Below, piece after piece: positions 1,229 through 53,400 of a stretch of 64,000 nt of DNA; within the stretch, counting starts at the first letter, position 1, and the number at the start of each line of letters is the position of its first letter. The stretch is from sequence record PZ445488.1; one strand, given 5' to 3'. The translations under genes and the position numbers were made by a program. The DNA is from a phage. A model generated the notes under the pieces. It did no database searches, was not told the DNA's origin, and saw nothing but the letters and a program-made list of their open reading frames with translations.

Positions 1229-2917
1229 TTATGAAACAGTCATTACCGTAAATCGTCCAACTTTGCTCATCTGAAGATGTTGTCCATAACGTTGAGGGTC
1301 ATGGTCTCGATGAGAGATAATGAACACATTAGTATTTTGTAAACTTCCAAGAATGGTATCTATAGCCTTAACAGCCTCAGAATCGACAGCACCATCAAAA
1401 ACCTCATCAAGAATCAGAGTGTTGATTTTAACGCCAGAGACCTTTTCAGCAATATCTCGCCATGTAAACAACAATGCGATATCGATACGTGCCTTTTCAC
1501 CTTGACTAAATGAAGCATAACTGAACTCTTCACGGCCACGTGATTTTATAGATTCATTGAATTCTTCGTCAATAGAAAACACGTAATCAGCTTCCATGAT
1601 TTTAAGATAGTGGTTAATCTGCTTGTTGAACAGAGGCACATATTTTTTAATGATAGCACCTTTAATACCAGAATCTTTTAACATATCTGTGATAATACCA
1701 CGATGGTATTTTTCAAGAACGATATCCGATTTTGTTTTAATGATTTTATCAAGTTCTTTTTGAAGCAAAGCTATCTCATCGGCGTGGTCGATAAATTCCG
1801 CCGAGGCTTGCTCTATTGCAGCTTTAACTTTCTTAGCTTTATCAATAGTGGCAATCATTGCTTGTTTCTTGGTACGGATATCGGATGCAAGGTCCTGTTT
1901 AGTCTTAACATTAGCTCGATATTCGTCCACTAGGACACTCAGATTATCTCTGTGGCAGGTAAGTTGCTCGAATGAGTGATTACATTCATGAAGCTTATCG
2001 GTAATCTTAGAGACAATAGGGTCACCCTGGTGCAACTGTGATGCGCAAGTAGGACATGTACCGCCATCATGATACATCTTAATAACTTTGTTATATGAGT
2101 CAATTTTAGATTTAATCAAGAATGCTTCTTGTCCGATCTTGTTGAATGCCTCAGTAGGGTCTTCGTCAAGAACGATATTAAGTAGACGCTCGTTAGCTTC
2201 TTCAATTTCTGCTTTTAATGAACGAGCTTCTTTGGCTAGGTCGTCATACATATTCTGTAGACGCGCTACATTATCGCCAGATAATTTCTTTTGACGTTCG
2301 ATATTCTCGTTATAAATCTTAATTTGTTGGATAATACCATCTTTCTTGGCATCGAGAACTTGTCCCTGGGAATTAAGTTCTCGAACTTGAGACTTATTGA
2401 TTTTATCCATTTCAGCTAGTGTTCCAACTTCTAATAAGTCTTCAACAAGCTTTCTGCGAGCAGGGGTGCTAAGAGCCATGAAAGGGGTATACCCTGCCGT
2501 CCCAAGCACAACGATCTGTTTAAAAGACGCGTATGACATTCTGATGCTACGTTCAAATTCTTCTTGGAAGTCACGACTGCTGGCAGATTCATCAAGACGA
2601 ACACCGTCAACGGAGATTTCGAAAATATTAGGCTTTTGGCCTCGTTTAATGAAGTATTTTTTATCATCGAATTCCATCCAAAGCTCAACTAAGAGCTCTT
2701 TCTTGTTCGTGCTATTAATGATTTGTCCTTTCTTAACATCACGAAATGGTTTACCGAAAAGTCCGAAAGTAATGGCTTCTAACATCGTAGATTTACCACC
2801 GCCATTTTTACCAGTGATTAATGTCTTTTGGACTTTATCTAATTGGATATCAATAGGATTCCCACCTACCGACATGATGTTTTGATAACGAACACGATTT
2901 AATTTAAATGATTTCAT
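1229..2917 (-). CDS. 46: recombination endonuclease subunit gp46 (Rad50/SbcC-like ATPase)
   Basis: 562 aa; Walker A GKNGGGKST; long coiled-coil middle; zinc-hook-like CPTC; C-terminal ABC signature region; T4 gp46 size. Confidence 0.92.
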   Translation of the reverse strand: MKSFKLNRVRYQNIMSVGGNPIDIQLDKVQKTLITGKNGGGKSTMLEAITFGLFGKPFRDVKKGQIINSTNKKELLVELWMEFDDKKYFIKRGQKPNIFEISVDGVRLDESASSRDFQEEFERSIRMSYASFKQIVVLGTAGYTPFMALSTPARRKLVEDLLEVGTLAEMDKINKSQVRELNSQGQVLDAKKDGIIQQIKIYNENIERQKKLSGDNVARLQNMYDDLAKEARSLKAEIEEANERLLNIVLDEDPTEAFNKIGQEAFLIKSKIDSYNKVIKMYHDGGTCPTCASQLHQGDPIVSKITDKLHECNHSFEQLTCHRDNLSVLVDEYRANVKTKQDLASDIRTKKQAMIATIDKAKKVKAAIEQASAEFIDHADEIALLQKELDKIIKTKSDIVLEKYHRGIITDMLKDSGIKGAIIKKYVPLFNKQINHYLKIMEADYVFSIDEEFNESIKSRGREEFSYASFSQGEKARIDIALLFTWRDIAEKVSGVKINTLILDEVFDGAVDSEAVKAIDTILGSLQNTNVFIISHRDHDPQRYGQHLQMSKVGRFTVMTVS

Positions 2918-13156: not shown

Positions 13157-13416
13157 TTAAAATATTCTCGTAGTTGGTCAAATCCACCAATATGACTTCC
13201 ATCAGGAGCAAATACTTGAGGCATAGTCAATCCAACTTGTGATTCACGTCCAAGCTTAACCAGAAGCTCAGCAATTTTCTCATCATCAAAAACACCTTTT
13301 TCTGGCATAACATTAATGAATTCGAATGGCTGTTTCTTAACAGTCAGCAATCGTTTCGCATTATCACAATAAATGCATTTATGAATAGTAGAGTCATACC
13401 CGTACACTTTAAACAT
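13153..13416 (-). CDS. nrdC: thioredoxin/glutaredoxin NrdC
   Basis: 87 aa from ATG 13416: MFKVYGYDSTIHKCIYCDNAKRLL...; near-identical to recalled T4 NrdC; AAAGGA SD. Confidence 0.9.
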   Translation of the reverse strand: MFKVYGYDSTIHKCIYCDNAKRLLTVKKQPFEFINVMPEKGVFDDEKIAELLVKLGRESQVGLTMPQVFAPDGSHIGGFDQLREYFK

Positions 13417-13822
13417 TATTTTTCCTTTCATCGATTAAATATGCAATGCCAAATACAATACATGTAATAAAACCTGTGATACAGATAGAAACCAACAACA
13501 CTGTACCAAAGAACCAAATCAAGTTATTTTTAGTAGTTTGTTTGATATCCATCTCACGAATTTCTATAGCTATCGTATCACCTTTATTCAGAAGCGTATA
13601 AAACGACGGTGATACACGCCTGTCAAAAACTCGTCCTTGCTCATCTTTATAGACTGCAATAAATTCTAATTTAGAATATTTTCCTGTAGATTGGCCTGAG
13701 ATTAATTCCACTACCTCCACAGGAATTACTTTAGTTTCCATGTAAGTATTCTGACTGTTCCAAATGAATGGAATAATGGCAAAAACTAAAGCTGCGATAA
13801 AACAACGAAGGCTATATCTCAT
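13409..13822 (-). CDS. hypothetical membrane protein
   Basis: 137 aa with N- and C-terminal hydrophobic segments. Confidence 0.5.
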   Translation of the reverse strand: MRYSLRCFIAALVFAIIPFIWNSQNTYMETKVIPVEVVELISGQSTGKYSKLEFIAVYKDEQGRVFDRRVSPSFYTLLNKGDTIAIEIREMDIKQTTKNNLIWFFGTVLLVSICITGFITCIVFGIAYLIDERKNNV

Positions 13823-14127
13823 TATAATATTCTCTCAAATTTGTGGAAGCATTTACGGCATTTCAATTTCAAGTTATCAGTGGTCCAGTTAACCAGTTGG
13901 ACTTGGATAGTTCCACATTCCGGGCATGGATGTTTTGCTGCTGATTTGGCAGCATTTTCACGTCGTTCAACCATTTTCATTATTTCGTTCCATGCCGGAG
14001 GAACGAACTCTTCTTCACCGTGGATTTTATCTCGCTGAACAAATTCAATCTTTGAACTATCGTCAATAAACTTAACCAAGCAGTGGTTAGTGTTCATATC
14101 AATATCCTCTAAAAGACGTAGTTTCAT
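13822..14127 (-). CDS. hypothetical zinc-ribbon protein
   Basis: 101 aa; CPECG...CRKC four-cysteine cluster at C-terminus. Confidence 0.5.
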   Translation of the reverse strand: MKLRLLEDIDMNTNHCLVKFIDDSSKIEFVQRDKIHGEEEFVPPAWNEIMKMVERRENAAKSAAKHPCPECGTIQVQLVNWTTDNLKLKCRKCFHKFERIL

Positions 14128-15077
14128 TATAACACCTCAATGGCATTTCGTAAACCATCCGCTTTTGCATTCAGAGCTTTTAATGATTTAGTTTGTTCTG
14201 CAATCTGGGCTTCGACTTCTTTCAGACGTGATTTGAGGTATTCACGTTCTTCGCTCAGGTTATCAACCTTTTCTGCTTTAGGTTCTTTAATAGGCTTAGA
14301 CTTAAACACATTAGGATTCTTCAGCTTAATTCGGGTGCGAGAACTATATAACATTGAACCGTTATCTTCGGATTCGTCGAACGTTTCAACAACATCCATA
14401 GTCTCTAACAATGTAATAAGTTTATAAGACAATGAACGAACGGTTTTGTTATGCTTATTAATTTCTTCAGCTTTCATGGTACCGAGATTACGTGAGTAGT
14501 AATAAGGAACCTGGATATCAATTGATAATGATGCGTTACCATTACCGGTTGGTTTGAATACTGCAGTAACCCAATCTTTAACATGAACTTTATTTGTACG
14601 GCCATCACCGCCAGTGAATAATTTACGAGAATGTTTAAAAAGCATATTCACTTGGTTATTGAATTCACAAGCAAATTTATCAGCAAATTTAGTTTCAGGA
14701 ATGGTAGATAACCAATCAGCCAAATGAGTCTTTTTAACATCATTAACAATAGTGAATTCAACCAAATCGGTTTTAGATGTCACAGATTTAATAAAGCTCG
14801 GCTTCATAAAGTTTTTAATGTTATCGCGAGCTACAGTAGAAGATAATAAACGAGAACGTTTGAACCATTGAAGCAGTGTCCCTAATGAATGAGAATACGC
14901 ATTCTGAGTATCTTTACAGATATGATTTTCTTGACCTGTGTATGTACCAAAATCGCGAAGAATACCACTTACTACATCTCGGTGTGGAACATCAAATCCT
15001 AGTGCACCAACAGCGCGCTTGGCATGAACGTTAGCGATAAGACCGGCAAAGTATTCAATGTAATGTGAACGTGTCAT
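14127..15077 (-). CDS. hypothetical protein with C-terminal coiled coil
   Basis: 316 aa; ATG start; heptad-like C-terminal ~50 aa; preceded by early-promoter repeat. Confidence 0.55.
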   Translation of the reverse strand: MTRSHYIEYFAGLIANVHAKRAVGALGFDVPHRDVVSGILRDFGTYTGQENHICKDTQNAYSHSLGTLLQWFKRSRLLSSTVARDNIKNFMKPSFIKSVTSKTDLVEFTIVNDVKKTHLADWLSTIPETKFADKFACEFNNQVNMLFKHSRKLFTGGDGRTNKVHVKDWVTAVFKPTGNGNASLSIDIQVPYYYSRNLGTMKAEEINKHNKTVRSLSYKLITLLETMDVVETFDESEDNGSMLYSSRTRIKLKNPNVFKSKPIKEPKAEKVDNLSEEREYLKSRLKEVEAQIAEQTKSLKALNAKADGLRNAIEVL

Positions 15078-15106
15078 AATATTTTCCTCTCGTTAAGATA
15101 GATTCA

Positions 15107-15132
15107 TTATACTCCAACCATCCTTGGTTGTA
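15107..15132 (-). promoter_or_regulatory. early-promoter-like repeat (GTTTAC - stem-loop - TATAAT), copy 1
   Basis: Minus sense GTTTACAACCAAGGATGGTTGGAGTATAAT; 26 nt identical to 16127..16152. Confidence 0.5.
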
Positions 15133-15139
15133 AACCGTT

Positions 15140-16099
15140 TTATGATTTTAATGCATTCATTGCATTAAAAAGTTTAGAATACTGCAACTGGAGATTCGTT
15201 ACAACACTTTGAGCATCACGAAGCTTAGCTTGTGCTTTGTCAAGTTCAACGGACAGTTGGTCCATAGTGGCCTTGATTTGATTGTAATGGTAATCTTCGA
15301 CCGGAAGAAGGTCATTAGAAACATTTAGTTTTACTGCAGACAGTTTGCACACATTTGGCAAACCTTTAAACATTGATTTACCCGAAGTAGAATATGAACC
15401 TAGAACTTCAGCATTACCAATTGGGGTTGCAGTAATTGACGCTTCAAATGTTGCATTTTCCTTTTTAAGATTTTGATAGTATTCAGAGTCTTTGTGCCAC
15501 CATGGCGCAGGAACCTTTTTACCAATAGATACACGAGCCTGGATAGCGATATGGCCCTTATTCTTGATAGGGTCGATAATATTAAGCTCACGAGAATAAA
15601 TTGCTTTAATCTGGTGGATATTATCACCTAAAACTTCCAACGCTTGGTGGAATACACGAGCAACGTTATCATTCTTAGGTTTATACGTAAGAGTGAACTC
15701 GTTCTCACTGATAACCATGATTTCCAACTTATCGTAAGTATATTTCAAATGTTTCATGTTAATTGCTTGAGGACGAATACGAGAAGCAATGGCCATCAGA
15801 TTGTTAAGGTTATTCCGGAACTGCTTAGCGAAATATTGTCCTTCACCGCCAATACAAAAATTACGAAGTTTCTGTTTGGCTAATAAACGGCTGAACTCAC
15901 CATTTTTAATGAACTCTTTAACGGGCGTGTTAGTAACACATTCAAATTGAGTAAACATACGAGAAGTAATCCCATAATACGAACAGACTTCCTCAATCTC
16001 TTCAGGAGTTTTTACAGGCATACGGATAGGATTAGGTCCTGGAGTATATGCGTTCGAGGTAAATTCTTTGATAAGTTCTCTACGTGTAATAAAAGCCAT
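15140..16099 (-). CDS. hypothetical protein with C-terminal coiled coil
   Basis: 319 aa; ATG start; C-terminal coiled-coil-like segment. Confidence 0.55.
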   Translation of the reverse strand: MAFITRRELIKEFTSNAYTPGPNPIRMPVKTPEEIEEVCSYYGITSRMFTQFECVTNTPVKEFIKNGEFSRLLAKQKLRNFCIGGEGQYFAKQFRNNLNNLMAIASRIRPQAINMKHLKYTYDKLEIMVISENEFTLTYKPKNDNVARVFHQALEVLGDNIHQIKAIYSRELNIIDPIKNKGHIAIQARVSIGKKVPAPWWHKDSEYYQNLKKENATFEASITATPIGNAEVLGSYSTSGKSMFKGLPNVCKLSAVKLNVSNDLLPVEDYHYNQIKATMDQLSVELDKAQAKLRDAQSVVTNLQLQYSKLFNAMNALKS

Positions 16100-16126
16100 T
16101 TTATATTCCTCATGTTGAAAAATTTA

Positions 16127-16152
16127 TTATACTCCAACCATCCTTGGTTGTA
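16127..16152 (-). promoter_or_regulatory. early-promoter-like repeat, copy 2
   Basis: Identical 26-nt core to 15107..15132 upstream of the next gene. Confidence 0.5.
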
Positions 16153-16154
16153 CA

Positions 16155-17150
16155 TCATTCCTTAAGAAGTTTTACTACTTGAATAAGATTAGCTCGTTCT
16201 GTTTTATTTTTACCATTTAAGCCTGCTAATCGTGAGATTTCATCGTCAGTCTGTTGAATAGTTACATTAAGTTCGTTAATCAAAGCTTCAAAGTATTTGA
16301 TTTGCTCAGCATGTTTTGATTCAAATTTCTGAACCGGAATAACGTCTTGGTTCAGTTCATCAATAAGGTCTTTAAGAGCATCTTCTTGGTTGATATCATA
16401 TTCAACTTCTTTTATTTCTTCAACGAGCTCGTCTTTATATCTAACGTCTTTTAGTCCTGGAGCTGGTCCTGAAATCTCTTCTTTAAGAGTACAAACATAC
16501 CCAATACGGTATCCAATGCCGTCTCGCTTGATATCAACTTCGTCGATAAATCCACAATGTTTAAGACCAGAGCCGATTATGTCAAAATATCCTTGACGTC
16601 GTCCTTCAAACGTTACACGAACTACTAAGACAGTTTTACCACCAACCTTTTGAAGCTCACATTTATAAAAGTCTGTTGAACCTGAATAACGTGGATGAGT
16701 TTTAAAGTTCATCTGACGATCTAGGCCCATTTGTAAACGTGCTGTTACGGCCATAAAACGTGTTTGGTTCTCGTTAAGATGAGCAACAATCCATTTCAAA
16801 GGCATTTTACACTGTTCACGACCGAACAAATCAGTACGTCCTAGATTACGCAGGATATTGTTAGAGTTAATCATCGACAGAACGTTAAGTTTATTCAGCG
16901 CGCTGAAGATTCCATCAGCCATTGATTTTCCATAACCTTTACACGCTTTAATAAGTGCTCGCGGCAGATTAGTATAGATTTCAGACGGCATATGAAAATC
17001 AAATTTACTAGTCAGTAATTGATGAACTTGGATAGCAATTTGCTCATAATTAAGTGCTCTGCGATCGTTATGGTCTTTAAACCACACTTTAATCTGTGAA
17101 GCACATAAACCGTTAATTTCATGTTTTACCGCATCAGATGTAATACTCAT
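16155..17150 (-). CDS. hypothetical protein with C-terminal coiled coil
   Basis: 331 aa; ATG start; C-terminal coiled-coil-like segment. Confidence 0.55.
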   Translation of the reverse strand: MSITSDAVKHEINGLCASQIKVWFKDHNDRRALNYEQIAIQVHQLLTSKFDFHMPSEIYTNLPRALIKACKGYGKSMADGIFSALNKLNVLSMINSNNILRNLGRTDLFGREQCKMPLKWIVAHLNENQTRFMAVTARLQMGLDRQMNFKTHPRYSGSTDFYKCELQKVGGKTVLVVRVTFEGRRQGYFDIIGSGLKHCGFIDEVDIKRDGIGYRIGYVCTLKEEISGPAPGLKDVRYKDELVEEIKEVEYDINQEDALKDLIDELNQDVIPVQKFESKHAEQIKYFEALINELNVTIQQTDDEISRLAGLNGKNKTERANLIQVVKLLKE

Positions 17151-17212
17151 AACTATTTCCTCAGATTGAATTGGAACTCAAAACCATTATAACCCGTCCT
17201 TGGGTAAAGCGT

Positions 17213-17758: not shown

Positions 17759-17796
17759 GATAGGTCTATAATAACATAACCATAGACCTTGTAAAC
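17759..17796 (-). promoter_or_regulatory. PeSL-like early promoter with stem-loop
   Basis: Minus sense GTTTAC...TATTATAGACCTATC with TAGGTCTAT/ATAGACCT inverted repeat. Confidence 0.5.
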
Positions 17797-17798
17797 AA

Positions 17799-18086
17799 CT
17801 AAAAGAAACTTTTTTCGGTATTTTTTCCACTGAACCAAACAGACTTCGGGATTTTTTGTAATTTTTCAGATTTAAGTTTCTCTTCCTGTTCTTTCTTATA
17901 TACACTCTTGTCGTACTGGAGCATCTCTATGGCATTCTTTTGCAAATGATCTAAGGTAATTAAGGCTTTAGTTTTTCCTTTCAAGGAAGAGTCCTGGCGA
18001 ACTTCCTCGCTATATTGCATCGTAGAACTAACCATACGATGTGCATAGAGTTCGACTGCGGCTTTAATTTTTTGCATAAAATCCAT
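17799..18086 (-). CDS. hypothetical protein
   Basis: 95 aa ORF, ATG start. Confidence 0.45.
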   Translation of the reverse strand: MDFMQKIKAAVELYAHRMVSSTMQYSEEVRQDSSLKGKTKALITLDHLQKNAIEMLQYDKSVYKKEQEEKLKSEKLQKIPKSVWFSGKNTEKSFF

Positions 18087-19233: not shown

Positions 19234-19271
19234 GATAGGTCTATAGTATCATATCCTAAAAGCATGTACAC
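19234..19271 (-). promoter_or_regulatory. PeSL-like early promoter with stem-loop
   Basis: GATAGGTCTATAGTATCATATCC...GTACA motif upstream of ATPase gene. Confidence 0.45.
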
Positions 19272-19300
19272 TACTTTTTAAAAATATTTTAACCCCCTAA

Positions 19301-28894: not shown

Positions 28895-28933
28895 GATGAA
28901 TGTATAGTATCAAAGTCCTTGGAGGAAGTAAAC
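28895..28933 (-). promoter_or_regulatory. PeSL-like early promoter with stem-loop upstream of denV
   Basis: 9-nt inverted repeat TCCTCCAAG/CTTGGAGGA flanking TATAGTAT; GTTTAC on minus. Confidence 0.5.
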
Positions 28934-36558: not shown

Positions 36559-36588
36559 TTTGTTTCTCCTCTTGATTTGATAGGTCTA

Positions 36589-36620
36589 TAGTAACACCGT
36601 CCATGGTGTTTGTACATCAT
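36589..36620 (-). promoter_or_regulatory. PeSL-like early promoter element
   Basis: GATAGGTCTATAGTAACACC...TGTACA motif on plus. Confidence 0.4.
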
Positions 36621-50424: not shown

Positions 50425-53400
50425 CAGTAAAAGCGCCAGCAGTCACGAGTCTCAGATTATCTAAATTGTCCGCAAACCAAGTTCAAATTCGCTGGGATGA
50501 GGTTGGCGCTAATTTCTACTATTTTGTGGAAATAGCTGAGACCAAAACAGCTAACGGGGAAGTAATTCCACGTAATAGCTATAGATGGACTAATTTAGGA
50601 TATACCGCTGATAACAATTTCTTTGAGTCTGGTTTAAATTCATTAACAACATATATGATGCGTGTGGCTACAGCAGCGGAGGGATTTGAGCAGTCTGATT
50701 GGAGATATACCGAAGAGTTTGAAACATTTGAAATAAACGCTTATACATTCCAACATATGATTGAAATGCAATTAGCTAATGAGTTTATTTCTGAAAAATT
50801 TACAAAAAATAATACAAACTACGTTGATTTTAATAATGACACGATCATGGCAGCACTGATGAGCGAGTCGTTCCAATTTAGTCCTGCATACACCGATGTG
50901 TCATCGATTAGAAATTTTATAATTGGCGAAAATCAGTATCATGAAATCCAGGGGCATATCCAAGATGTATGTAAAGATATAAATCGAGTATATCTAATGG
51001 AATCTGAAGGAATTCTTTACCTTTTTGAAAGATTCCAACCTATTGTAAAAGTGTCTAATGATAAAGGCCAAACATGGAAAGCGGTTAAATTGCTTAATGA
51101 CCGTGTAGGATATCCACTTTCACGAACTGTATATTACCAATCAGAATATACGACGTATTTGCTCGGCTATGATAAGATTTTTTACGGGCGTAAATCATCC
51201 GATATTCGTTGGTCTGCTGATGATGTTCGTTTCAGTTCACAAGATGTAACATTTGCTAAAATCGGGGATCGATTAAATTTAGGTTTTGATGTAGAGATTT
51301 TCGGTACATACGCGTCATTACCAGGAAACGTATCACGTATTGCAGAAGCTATTACTTGTAATGATGACTATGTTTATATTGCGGCCAGAGATAAAGTTCG
51401 CTTCGTTAAAACCAGTAACGCTCCTATTGATTCAGATCCATTATCTCCGACCTATTCCGAACGGTTGTTTGAACCTGAGACGTTTACAATAACAGGCAAC
51501 CCTAAAGCAGTTTGTTATAAAATGGATTCTGTTGGTGGAAGAATATTCGCTCTTATTATTGGTGAAGTCGAAAACGTTAATGACGACCCAAGAACAAAGC
51601 CTATTTTAGATTCCGTTGATAAAGGTGTATACGTTTTAGACCATGACGCTGGAACATTTAAAAGGATATTTGGTAATACCGAAGAAGAACGCCGTCGTAT
51701 AGAACCGGCTTTCACCAATATGTCTACTGACGGTGTTGAGCTTTATATCTCTTCTAGTAATTTTAAATTTTTGGAATCTGATATTGTTGACGACCCAGAA
51801 ACGCAATCTAAGTATGGACTTTTAGGAGCAGTTAAGTACGAATATCCTAGAGAATGGCTCGCAGATAAACATTACCATATGATGATTTTCGCATCAAACG
51901 AAGAAAGTAATTGGGAAACTTTTTCACCAACTCCTATGCAGTATTATGCAGAACCTTTCTTTAGTTATTCTAGAAAATCAGGCACACGTTCTTGGATTAA
52001 TAACTCTGATAGAGCGGTAGTGATTTATTCTGATTTGCTTTACACAAAGGTAGTGGAAAGCCACCCTAGCACTTCACCTGATCGTAAAGTTCATGAATAC
52101 TGGAATGATGGCGATTGTAAGATTGTTATGCCGAATATAGAATTCACTGGATTTAAAAAATACGCATCTGGTATGTTGTTTTATAAATCATCAGGTGAAA
52201 TAATTTCATATTACGATTTTAGTTATCGTGTTAGAGATAACGTTTCTATAATTTGGAAGCCCACTAATGTATTTTTGACCTCCTCATTACAAAACCAAGA
52301 AAAAGAAACTTCTTGGGTTCCTGTTGAAGAGACAGGTCTAGCTGACCCGGATTTACGCCCATTACTCACTACAATGATGCCAGAGTCTTATCTGTTGGAT
52401 AATACAAACTTTGAAGCATTTTGTGAAGCGTATATTCAATATCTTTCTGATGGATACGGGACTCATTATAATAACTTATTGAATTTGATTAAAAATAAAT
52501 ACCCACGAGAAGAACACGCATGGGAATATCTTTGGTCCGAAATTTATAAACGGAACATTTATTTGAATGCTGAGAAACGTGATTTAGTTTCTAGGTTCTT
52601 TGAGTCCAGAAGTTATGATTTTTATTCTACTAAAGGAACTGAAGCGTCGTATAAGTTTTTGTTTAAAGTTCTTTATAACGAAGACGTTGAAGTGGAAATT
52701 GAGTCATCTGCTGGAACAGAGTACGATATCATAATTCAATCTGATTCTATAAGTGAAGATTTGGTTGGACAAACTATATACACCGCTACAGGTAGATGTA
52801 ATGTTACATATTTAGAAAGAAGCTATTCTAAAGGTAAATTACAATGGACTGTGACTATTCATAACCTTTTAGGTAGGCTTTTAGTCGGTCAAGAAGTAAA
52901 AGCCGAAAGACTAGCAGATTTTGAAGGTGAAATAGTTCGCGGTATTAAAGGTAAAGAACTTGCCCAAAACACTATCGATTATTTTAATCGTGGTAGAGCT
53001 TATTACGTCATGAAAATAAAGTCAAATCTTCCGTCCTCTCGTTGGAAATCTGACGTACTACGTTTTGTACATCCGGTAGGATTTGGATTTATTGCAATAA
53101 CCTTATTAACAATGTTTATTAATACAGGATTAACGCTTAAACATGTTGAAACTATTATTAATAAATATAAAAATTATAAGTGGGATTCCGGACTGCCTAC
53201 GGAATATGCAGACCGCGTCGCTCGTTTAGACCCTCAAGGTAATGTAGAATTCAATCCTGTTACAGGTGAAGTAATTTATGATGCTGGGCCTTATGCCGGT
53301 ATCGAATACCCTTTACCTGCAAATTATAACGAAGAAAATGATAACTCTATTTTCCAAGGACAATTACCGTCCGAACGACGCAAGCCAATGAGCCCATTAT

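Follow-up and report, generated by a model that had tools for sequence, protein, structure and literature searches.

A gene cassette between early-type promoter repeats, hairpin-containing promoter units and candidate counter-defence genes in the nrdC-mobD region of the T-even phage CEV1

The closest described counterparts of the locus considered here are the promoter-early stem-loop (PeSL) elements, which carry an indel signature, follow the consensus TTTACW-N17-TAYWAT in T4 and PST, and have a MotA-box variant termed PmSL (Arbiol et al. 2010, PMC2839356; Comeau et al. 2014, PMC4122927). PeSL-like elements have been placed at ~47-51 kb of PST, in the same hyperplastic region as our locus, with the genes there left unnamed (Comeau et al., PMC4122927). 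Our subject is a segment of a 64,000-nucleotide stretch of phage DNA (record PZ445488.1; this whole stretch is called the window below) that is a 100% match to Escherichia phage CEV1 and a 97-98% match to other RB69-like Mosigviruses. The segment holds three consecutive genes, here called A, B and C, with a promoter-like unit upstream of each. On sequence and gene order, the locus is assigned to the nrdC.3/nrdC.5/nrdC.6 segment of the nrdC-mobD hyperplastic region of CEV1, a T-even phage of the genus Mosigvirus.

Genes of this region have also been found to act against bacterial defences. A T4 nrdC.5 deletion mutant regains growth on cells with the Dsr1 sirtuin defence of ECOR17 when the gene is supplied in trans (Srikant et al. 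2022, PMC9391042). A preprint reports that Septu is inhibited by T4 nrdC.1, and OLD is inhibited by T6 gp49.2. Because of these three results, the 49-nrdC-mobD interval can be regarded as an anti-defence island. The three genes of the CEV1 segment are themselves known T-even open reading frames, and our additions to what is known are modest: population-level evidence that gene B is a cassette, and a covarying hairpin in the promoter spacer that is common to a mapped T4 middle promoter.

Gene B between two repeated promoter units

Gene B is flanked by two early-type units that form direct repeats 1020 bp apart (Table 1). The repeats are 86% identical over 43 nt and share an identical core of 27 nt (15106-15132 and 16126-16152), and a 25-nt core pattern matches twice in the 64 kb against 0.00 matches expected. 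We joined window positions 14780-15132 to 16153-16500 to give a synthetic B-less junction, and this junction is found as contiguous sequence in 20 Mosigvirus genomes, at 100% coverage and 97-98.7% identity. These genomes include G2469, p000v, G2285, WFK, F2 and the AV and FL/JM series; gene B is carried by ~132 records. In phage G2469, nrdC.3 directly follows nrdC.6, and the junction is a hybrid of the CEV1 C|B unit on the left and the CEV1 B|A unit on the right, with the switch inside the identical core. Cassette recombination had been raised as a possibility in a preliminary description of this DNA, and the 20 natural genomes with the exact B-less junction, together with the G2469 crossover inside the 27-nt core, directly support the gain or loss of gene B by homologous recombination between the repeats, the indel signature of a PeSL. 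The B-less junction is compatible with insertion and deletion alike, and the direction of the event is not readable from it. Mechanistically, recombination between the repeats would add or remove gene B as a self-promoted cassette, and excision would give a predicted 1020-bp circle.

The CEV1 units resemble PeSLs in several respects. They are intergenic within a hyperplastic region (15078-15139 and 16100-16154, each bounded by the stop codon of one nrdC.x gene and the start codon of the next), they combine a predicted early sigma-70-like promoter with a stem-loop, a Shine-Dalgarno sequence and a start codon, they are tandemly repeated around accessory open reading frames, and indels between close relatives break within them. 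The unit upstream of C has a MotA-box-like promoter and in this resembles a PmSL. However, the stem-loop of the CEV1 units lies inside the promoter spacer, whereas that of a PeSL lies just upstream of the -35. The CEV1 stem is also short (5-6 bp, with an AGGA/AAGGAY loop) and, because it has no U-tract, not terminator-like, and its loop is conserved while the stem covaries across four genera. Set against the description of PeSLs, the intergenic site, the early promoter and the indel breakpoints are found in CEV1, but a terminator or attenuator stem-loop upstream of the promoter is not.

Table 1. Genes and promoter-like units of the CEV1 nrdC.3/nrdC.5/nrdC.6 array. Positions are those of the window; the last row gives stem sequences by phage group.
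Feature	Position	Strand	Parts and remarks
Gene A, NrdC.3 orthologue, 316 aa	14127..15077	-	PF26897, phrog_1435; N-domain and C-terminal heptad helix ~267-316
Repeat copy 1, predicted promoter/hairpin unit upstream of A	15097..15139	-	Right-hand boundary of gene-B cassette; -35 TTTACA 15134-15129; hairpin CAACC-AAGGAT-GGTTG 15130-15115; GGAG 15115-15112; -10 TATAAT 15111-15106
Gene B, RB69-type NrdC.5, 319 aa	15140..16099	-	Pfam DUF7235 (PF23882)
Repeat copy 2, predicted promoter/hairpin unit upstream of B	16117..16159	-	Left-hand boundary of gene-B cassette; -35 TGTACA 16154-16149, abutting C stop codon; hairpin 16150-16135; GGAG; -10 TATAAT 16131-16126
Gene C, NrdC.6 orthologue, 331 aa	16155..17150	-	PF26899, phrog_2257; heptad region 273-309
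Middle-promoter-type unit upstream of C	17186..17211	-	Straight after nrdC.8 stop; MotA-box-like GCTTTA 17210-17205; hairpin ACCC-AAGGAC-GGGT 17205-17192; -10 TATAAT 17191-17186
Outer stems of the spacer hairpin			CAACC/GGTTG Mosigvirus; CATCC/GGATG Dhakavirus; CTTCC/GGAGG Gaprivervirus; AGCC/GGCT and CCACA/TGTGG T4

Three coiled-coil proteins and their candidate role

Annotated relatives and synteny with T4 identify A as nrdC.3, B as an RB69-type nrdC.5 and C as nrdC.6. The three open reading frames were found where the preliminary description had placed them, on the minus strand like every gene of the region, and the synteny comparison that it called for returns orthologous genes in the same order in T4, with synteny conserved in WG01 and VR20 as well. 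The composition of the array varies by genus, with nrdC.3/.4/.5/.6 in T4,.4/.5/.6 in Dhakavirus and Gaprivervirus, and.3/.5/.6 in Mosigvirus. Gene A is 57% identical to T4 NrdC.3 and matches phrog_1435 with an E value of 3.6e-102, and its homologues all bear the PF26897 label among precomputed Pfam labels. Gene C, for which the precomputed label is PF26899, is 98% identical to RB69 NrdC.6 and ~30-33% identical to Tequatrovirus NrdC.6, and matches phrog_2257 (E 1.6e-127). Gene B matches DUF7235 over its full length (profile positions 1-307; E 1.1e-121; 406 bits, with the cut-off at 30), T4 NrdC.5 falls in this family too (E 5.3e-126, 420 bits), and the two proteins are 24% identical by BLASTP (E 2e-12), which marks B as a distant homologue of T4 NrdC.5. 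In PHROGs the three proteins fall into different families, each of unknown function, and these families are extremely narrow: a phmmer search with B against 1.84 billion representatives gave four matches only. Many GenBank genomes (e.g. ATK47) label every nrdC.x gene as thioredoxin, a name that we reject for A, B and C as carried over from nrdC, since none of the three has a thioredoxin domain. Clear orthologues of well-characterised T4 genes would have told against the preliminary description. Orthologues in T4 and RB69 are indeed clear, but well characterised they are not, as only T4 nrdC.5 has a phenotype, the anti-Dsr1 effect.

The C-terminal coiled coils proposed earlier are supported in all three proteins. 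With an ad hoc heptad a/d score and a threshold of the shuffle mean plus two standard deviations, the score exceeds threshold only at residues 267-316 of A, 267-319 of B and 273-309 of C, and AlphaFold2 places a single long terminal helix at 275-315 of A and 267-318 of B. Matches of A, B and C to Pfam coiled-coil families were weak only, all below cut-off. Side by side with these tails we observe that the reference T4 nrdC.6 coding sequence (275 aa; T4 NC_000866 ~51989-52893) carries a frameshift when compared with CEV1 C and with ACG-C40 NrdC.6 (295 aa). Residues 27-294 of C align with T4 in one frame and residues 295-330 (58% identity) in another, so that the coiled-coil tail, which C keeps and the annotated T4 protein has lost, falls in DNA annotated in T4 as the nrdC.6/nrdC.5 intergenic region. 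We also observe that natural deletions and shuffles of the array repeatedly retain just the part that codes for the C-terminal coiled coil (ACG-C40 NrdC.3 aa 245-316; Salmonella phage Manna NrdC.4 aa 251-333; Pinarejo NrdC.6 aa 286-330), and this suggests breakpoints or domain swaps at the boundary between N-domain and coiled coil.

Paralogy of all three proteins had been implied from their size and architecture, and it finds support for one pair. An alternative that we hold to be less probable than not is that the three are not one paralogous family, that size and coiled-coil tail are convergent or that the tail alone was shuffled, and that C especially is unrelated. BLAST finds no pairwise similarity among A, B and C, shallow family profiles compared with hhalign align the coiled coil alone, and Pfam holds three separate families, all of which fit this alternative. 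However, broader family alignments drawn from four genera, with the last 70 residues trimmed off, link NrdC.3 and NrdC.4 at 98% probability (E 1.4e-13), a firm homology on profile evidence, and the merged NrdC.3+4 profile matches the NrdC.5 N-domain over 184 columns (83% probability, E 8.7e-6). In a control with all 50 window open reading frames of at least 150 aa, B was the top non-self match of the NrdC.3+4 profile. The AlphaFold2 models of A and B, poor as they are, also agree in the order of their elements (N-terminal helices, a three-strand meander, a helix, strands, a linker and the long terminal helix). A, together with T4 NrdC.4, is in our reading a probable remote paralogue of B. NrdC.6, represented by C, reaches at most 6% probability against the merged profile (E 0.006) with no significant profile link, and C appears to share architecture only with A and B; against complete unrelatedness, the weak alignments of C keep one linear order and coincide with the same pair of motifs, SRLLS...L.NF and NQ..L....ARL.

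In comparison with T4 NrdC.5, B is of comparable size, shares the full-length family match and the C-terminal helix motif (..SKL.NA.NAL), and occupies the same place with respect to nrdC.6. It differs in its low identity, in being an indel cassette and in standing behind its own predicted promoter, whereas T4 nrdC.5 directly follows nrdC.6. A (57% identity) and C (~30% identity) likewise keep the gene order of T4 nrdC.3 and nrdC.6, though CEV1 has no nrdC.4. The array proteins have diverged steeply, with 24-57% identity against 83% for the adjacent NrdC.8. Natural phages can do without the array: in phage ACG-C40, most of nrdC.5 and nrdC.3 and all of nrdC.4 are lost. Between B and T4 NrdC.5 the end of the coiled coil is much better conserved than the rest of the protein, at about 15 of the last 24 aligned residues, and the tail may accordingly be a functional module common to both.

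We suggest that A, B and C are probably diversifying counter-defence (host-range) factors. In such factors the variable N-domain would bind a host immune protein, and the conserved C-terminal coiled coil would oligomerise the protein. It is possible, but to our minds doubtful, that the proteins are instead host-takeover or housekeeping accessories, for example regulators or scaffolds, and that the effect of T4 NrdC.5 on Dsr1 is lineage-specific or indirect. Library searches revealed no domain of known activity (NCBIfam and PADLOC gave no match), a PDB sequence search with the three profiles found no solved relative, and T4 NrdC.5 is only 24% identical to B, points that favour this reading. Yet B and T4 NrdC.5 belong to the same Pfam family over their full length, and the region holds three different anti-defence genes shown in T-evens. 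Patchy presence and absence, steep divergence beside the well-conserved NrdC.8 and an extremely narrow distribution likewise argue for counter-defence rather than housekeeping.

Promoter units and their spacer hairpin

The units upstream of A and B are predicted sigma-70 early-type promoters. Copy 1, TTTACA-N17-TATAAT, is the best sigma-70 match in 10 kb with 11/12 positions in agreement with the consensus, and copy 2, TGTACA-N17-TATAAT, agrees at 10/12, its -35 being off consensus; overall the pair conforms to the T4/PST PeSL consensus. The preliminary description had given both genes an identical 26-nt element reading GTTTAC-N18-TATAAT. The shared element exists and is one base longer, at 27 nt; GTTTAC does stand upstream of 14127-15077, but the other copy reads ATGTAC, and the spacing is N17 in standard hexamer terms. 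To call the promoters identical was an overstatement, since identity holds for the core but not for the -35 hexamers (TTTACA versus TGTACA), which lie partly outside it. The CAACC/GGTTG stem noted in the spacer is confirmed, and its predicted fold is a 6-bp hairpin around an AGGA loop (-6.9 kcal/mol). Units of this kind had been credited to two of the genes, which is right for A and B but misses a related element of the third (CCAAGGACGG, 17194-17203). A, B and C are each preceded by a separate promoter-like unit, which comes straight after the stop codon of the gene before; a GAGGAA Shine-Dalgarno sequence follows, the gene itself beginning a few tens of bases beyond the unit, and this arrangement supports the earlier view of a modular, independently promoted array. 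T4, WG01, VR20 and several IMG/VR contigs have the early-type layout too, upstream of nrdC.4 or nrdC.3.

The unit upstream of C reads cGCTTTA-N13-TATAAT, in agreement with a MotA box (..TGCTTtA) 12 +/- 1 bp before an excellent -10, with C in place of T before GCTT. Its T4 counterpart reads GCTTTA-TACCAAGGATGG-TATAAT, the -10 ending at T4 position 53332, and the T4 middle promoter PnrdC.7 has a mapped start at 53325 (Hinton 2010 review, PMC2988021, Table 1). The unit is, as far as its sequence tells, an orthologue of PnrdC.7 and a predicted MotA-type middle promoter. Layout and position are the same in both phages, with a GCTTTA box, a CCAAGGAYGG hairpin and TATAAT after the nrdC.8 stop, but the spacer is 13 nt in CEV1 and 12 nt in T4. 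A further difference is that the CEV1 unit is placed to drive nrdC.6 directly, because the nrdC.7 homologue is located elsewhere. This homologue is a 137-aa membrane protein (window 13409-13822, minus strand; 40% identity to T4 NrdC.7, E 5e-26) whose gene adjoins nrdC instead of following nrdC.8, and is thus relocated relative to T4. Beside it lies a NrdC.2 homologue, a 101-aa CxxC...CxxC protein with 50% identity (13822-14127, minus strand).

CCAAGGAYGG occurs at exactly three sites in the 64 kb, one upstream of each of A, B and C, and in all three units it forms a hairpin, with AAGGAY as its loop, that separates the -10 from the upstream promoter element. The same hairpin/promoter architecture is found in four phage genera, in which the inner CC/GG pairs and the loop are constant and the outer stem varies with pairing retained (Table 1). 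In a covariation set of 13 sequences, 12 of them picked by gene position rather than by pairing, 91% of stem cells are paired and four of the six pairs show compensatory double changes. The covariation score is 0.641 against 0.147 for shuffled sequences (0/500 reached it), and controls with slid partner columns stayed at or below 0.135. As for function, our default is the role proposed for PeSL stem-loops: in RNA that reads through from the gene upstream, the hairpin would most likely serve as a 3' stabiliser or an attenuator. A DNA-level role in recombination may also be considered.

It is quite improbable that the two repeats owe their identity to purifying selection on strong early promoters alone and have no part in gene gain or loss. 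Both copies do match the sigma-70/T4 early consensus well, and the conservation of CCAAGGAYGG across four genera means that the core is constrained in any case. However, the two equivalent T4 units differ from each other, so that identity is not required for promoter function, and stems differ between genera while pairing persists. The 20 natural genomes without B and the hybrid G2469 junction with its crossover inside the core argue further for the recombination of gene B as a cassette. Least probable of all is that the hairpin and the following GGAG form a processing site for the RegB endoribonuclease in read-through early mRNA: although GGA lies exposed in the loop, the fourth base being paired, and GGAG with the UAUAAU(G/A)AA behind it resembles GG*AGRAYARAA, GGAGUAUAAUGAA carries U at consensus position 5, where a purine is expected, the middle-type units have no GGAG, and we reject the reading on published T4 cleavage data, in which 30 of 30 intergenic GGAU motifs were tested and cut only at 55.2 and motB.2, structured GGAG sites being resistant, while the loop motif here is GGAU.

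Several related elements lie elsewhere. Within the 3' end of gene A there is a promoter-like match, TTTACG-N17-TATAAT (window 14126-14154, minus strand), whose -10 overlaps the A stop codon and the start codon of the next gene (TAATG), with no leader left; the match is probably due to chance or used by a gene farther downstream. A second repeat family of 57 nt at 70% identity (17759-17815 and 19234-19290) occupies the promoter regions upstream of the nrdC.8 and nrdC.10 homologues, and in its first copy a AGGTCTAT...ATAGACCT stem overlaps the -10. At 36588-36616 on the minus strand stands a further early-type promoter whose spacer has a related hairpin (TGTACA-AACACC ATGGAC GGTGT-TACTAT), and two early-like promoters on the same strand, at 28932 and 40934, have AAGGA in the spacer with no clear stem. 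An IMG/VR scan for CCAAGGAYGG-N(0-8)-TATAAT gave 120 matches, most of them chance, with only contigs holding two or three matches being T-even loci. On a Gaprivervirus-like IMG/VR contig, a MotA box, an AGGA-loop hairpin and a -10 stand together at an unrelated position (~1270-1290, minus strand; GCTTTG-TATCA AGGA TGATA-TAAT), and the hairpin/promoter architecture is therefore not confined to the nrdC.x array.

Weighing the evidence

We judge it moderately probable that the whole account holds, that is, nrdC.3/.5/.6 accessory genes with hairpin-promoter units, B as a PeSL cassette, and a counter-defence role. Several points weigh against it. At only 24% identity, B may not have conserved the anti-Dsr1 activity of T4 NrdC.5, and the counter-defence role of A and C is proposed for proteins that have no characterised relative. 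Promoter activity in CEV1 is likewise predicted from sequence. The structural models lend no fold-level support, as they are of low confidence: the mean predicted local distance difference test (pLDDT) score is 40 for B, from an alignment of 18 sequences with homologues too similar to one another, and 52 for A, from 29 sequences. A Foldseek search with the A model found no match in PDB and, in BFVD, only the NrdC.3 homologue and weak matches (E ~1e-3, template modelling score ~0.2) to 320-370 aa proteins of the Serratia phages PS2 and CBH8 and to E5EYP0/E5EYP1, and we treat both searches as uninformative. In the control with 50 open reading frames, C did not rise above background. Single copies of the hairpin fold weakly (-6 to -9 kcal/mol, z -1.3 to -2.2; z -1.4 to -1.7 for CAACC/GGTTG), and shuffled spacers form stems of 5 bp or more in 31% of cases, so that the case for the hairpin rests on covariation in the 13 sequences; the 5/9 sites seen against the 31% expected from shuffled spacers are not counted as support. 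A role as an intrinsic terminator is not supported, as the hairpin has no U-tract and a terminator scan does not pick it up.

It is conceivable, if unlikely, that the locus reflects something more specific. The AAGGAY-loop spacer hairpin might be a dedicated signal, in RNA or in single-stranded or cruciform DNA, such as a recombination or processing mark, that marks genes of the NrdC.3/4/5/6 type, across the T-even genera, as self-promoted modules open to exchange. The coiled-coil proteins would then be one diversifying family, each member disabling a different immune system, possibly through a shared coiled-coil partner or through hetero-oligomers.

On the account that we favour, the three genes of the array are candidates for counter-defence, with B in the anti-Dsr1 family, and the array is relevant to host-range prediction and to phage-therapy cocktails built on CEV1-like phages. 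The covarying hairpin between promoter elements, common to a mapped T4 middle promoter, poses a small question in T-even gene regulation. Finally, gene B offers a clean natural example of the PeSL model in the RB69/Mosigvirus lineage, with 27-nt repeats, ~132 genomes that carry the gene and ~20 that have the exact empty site.

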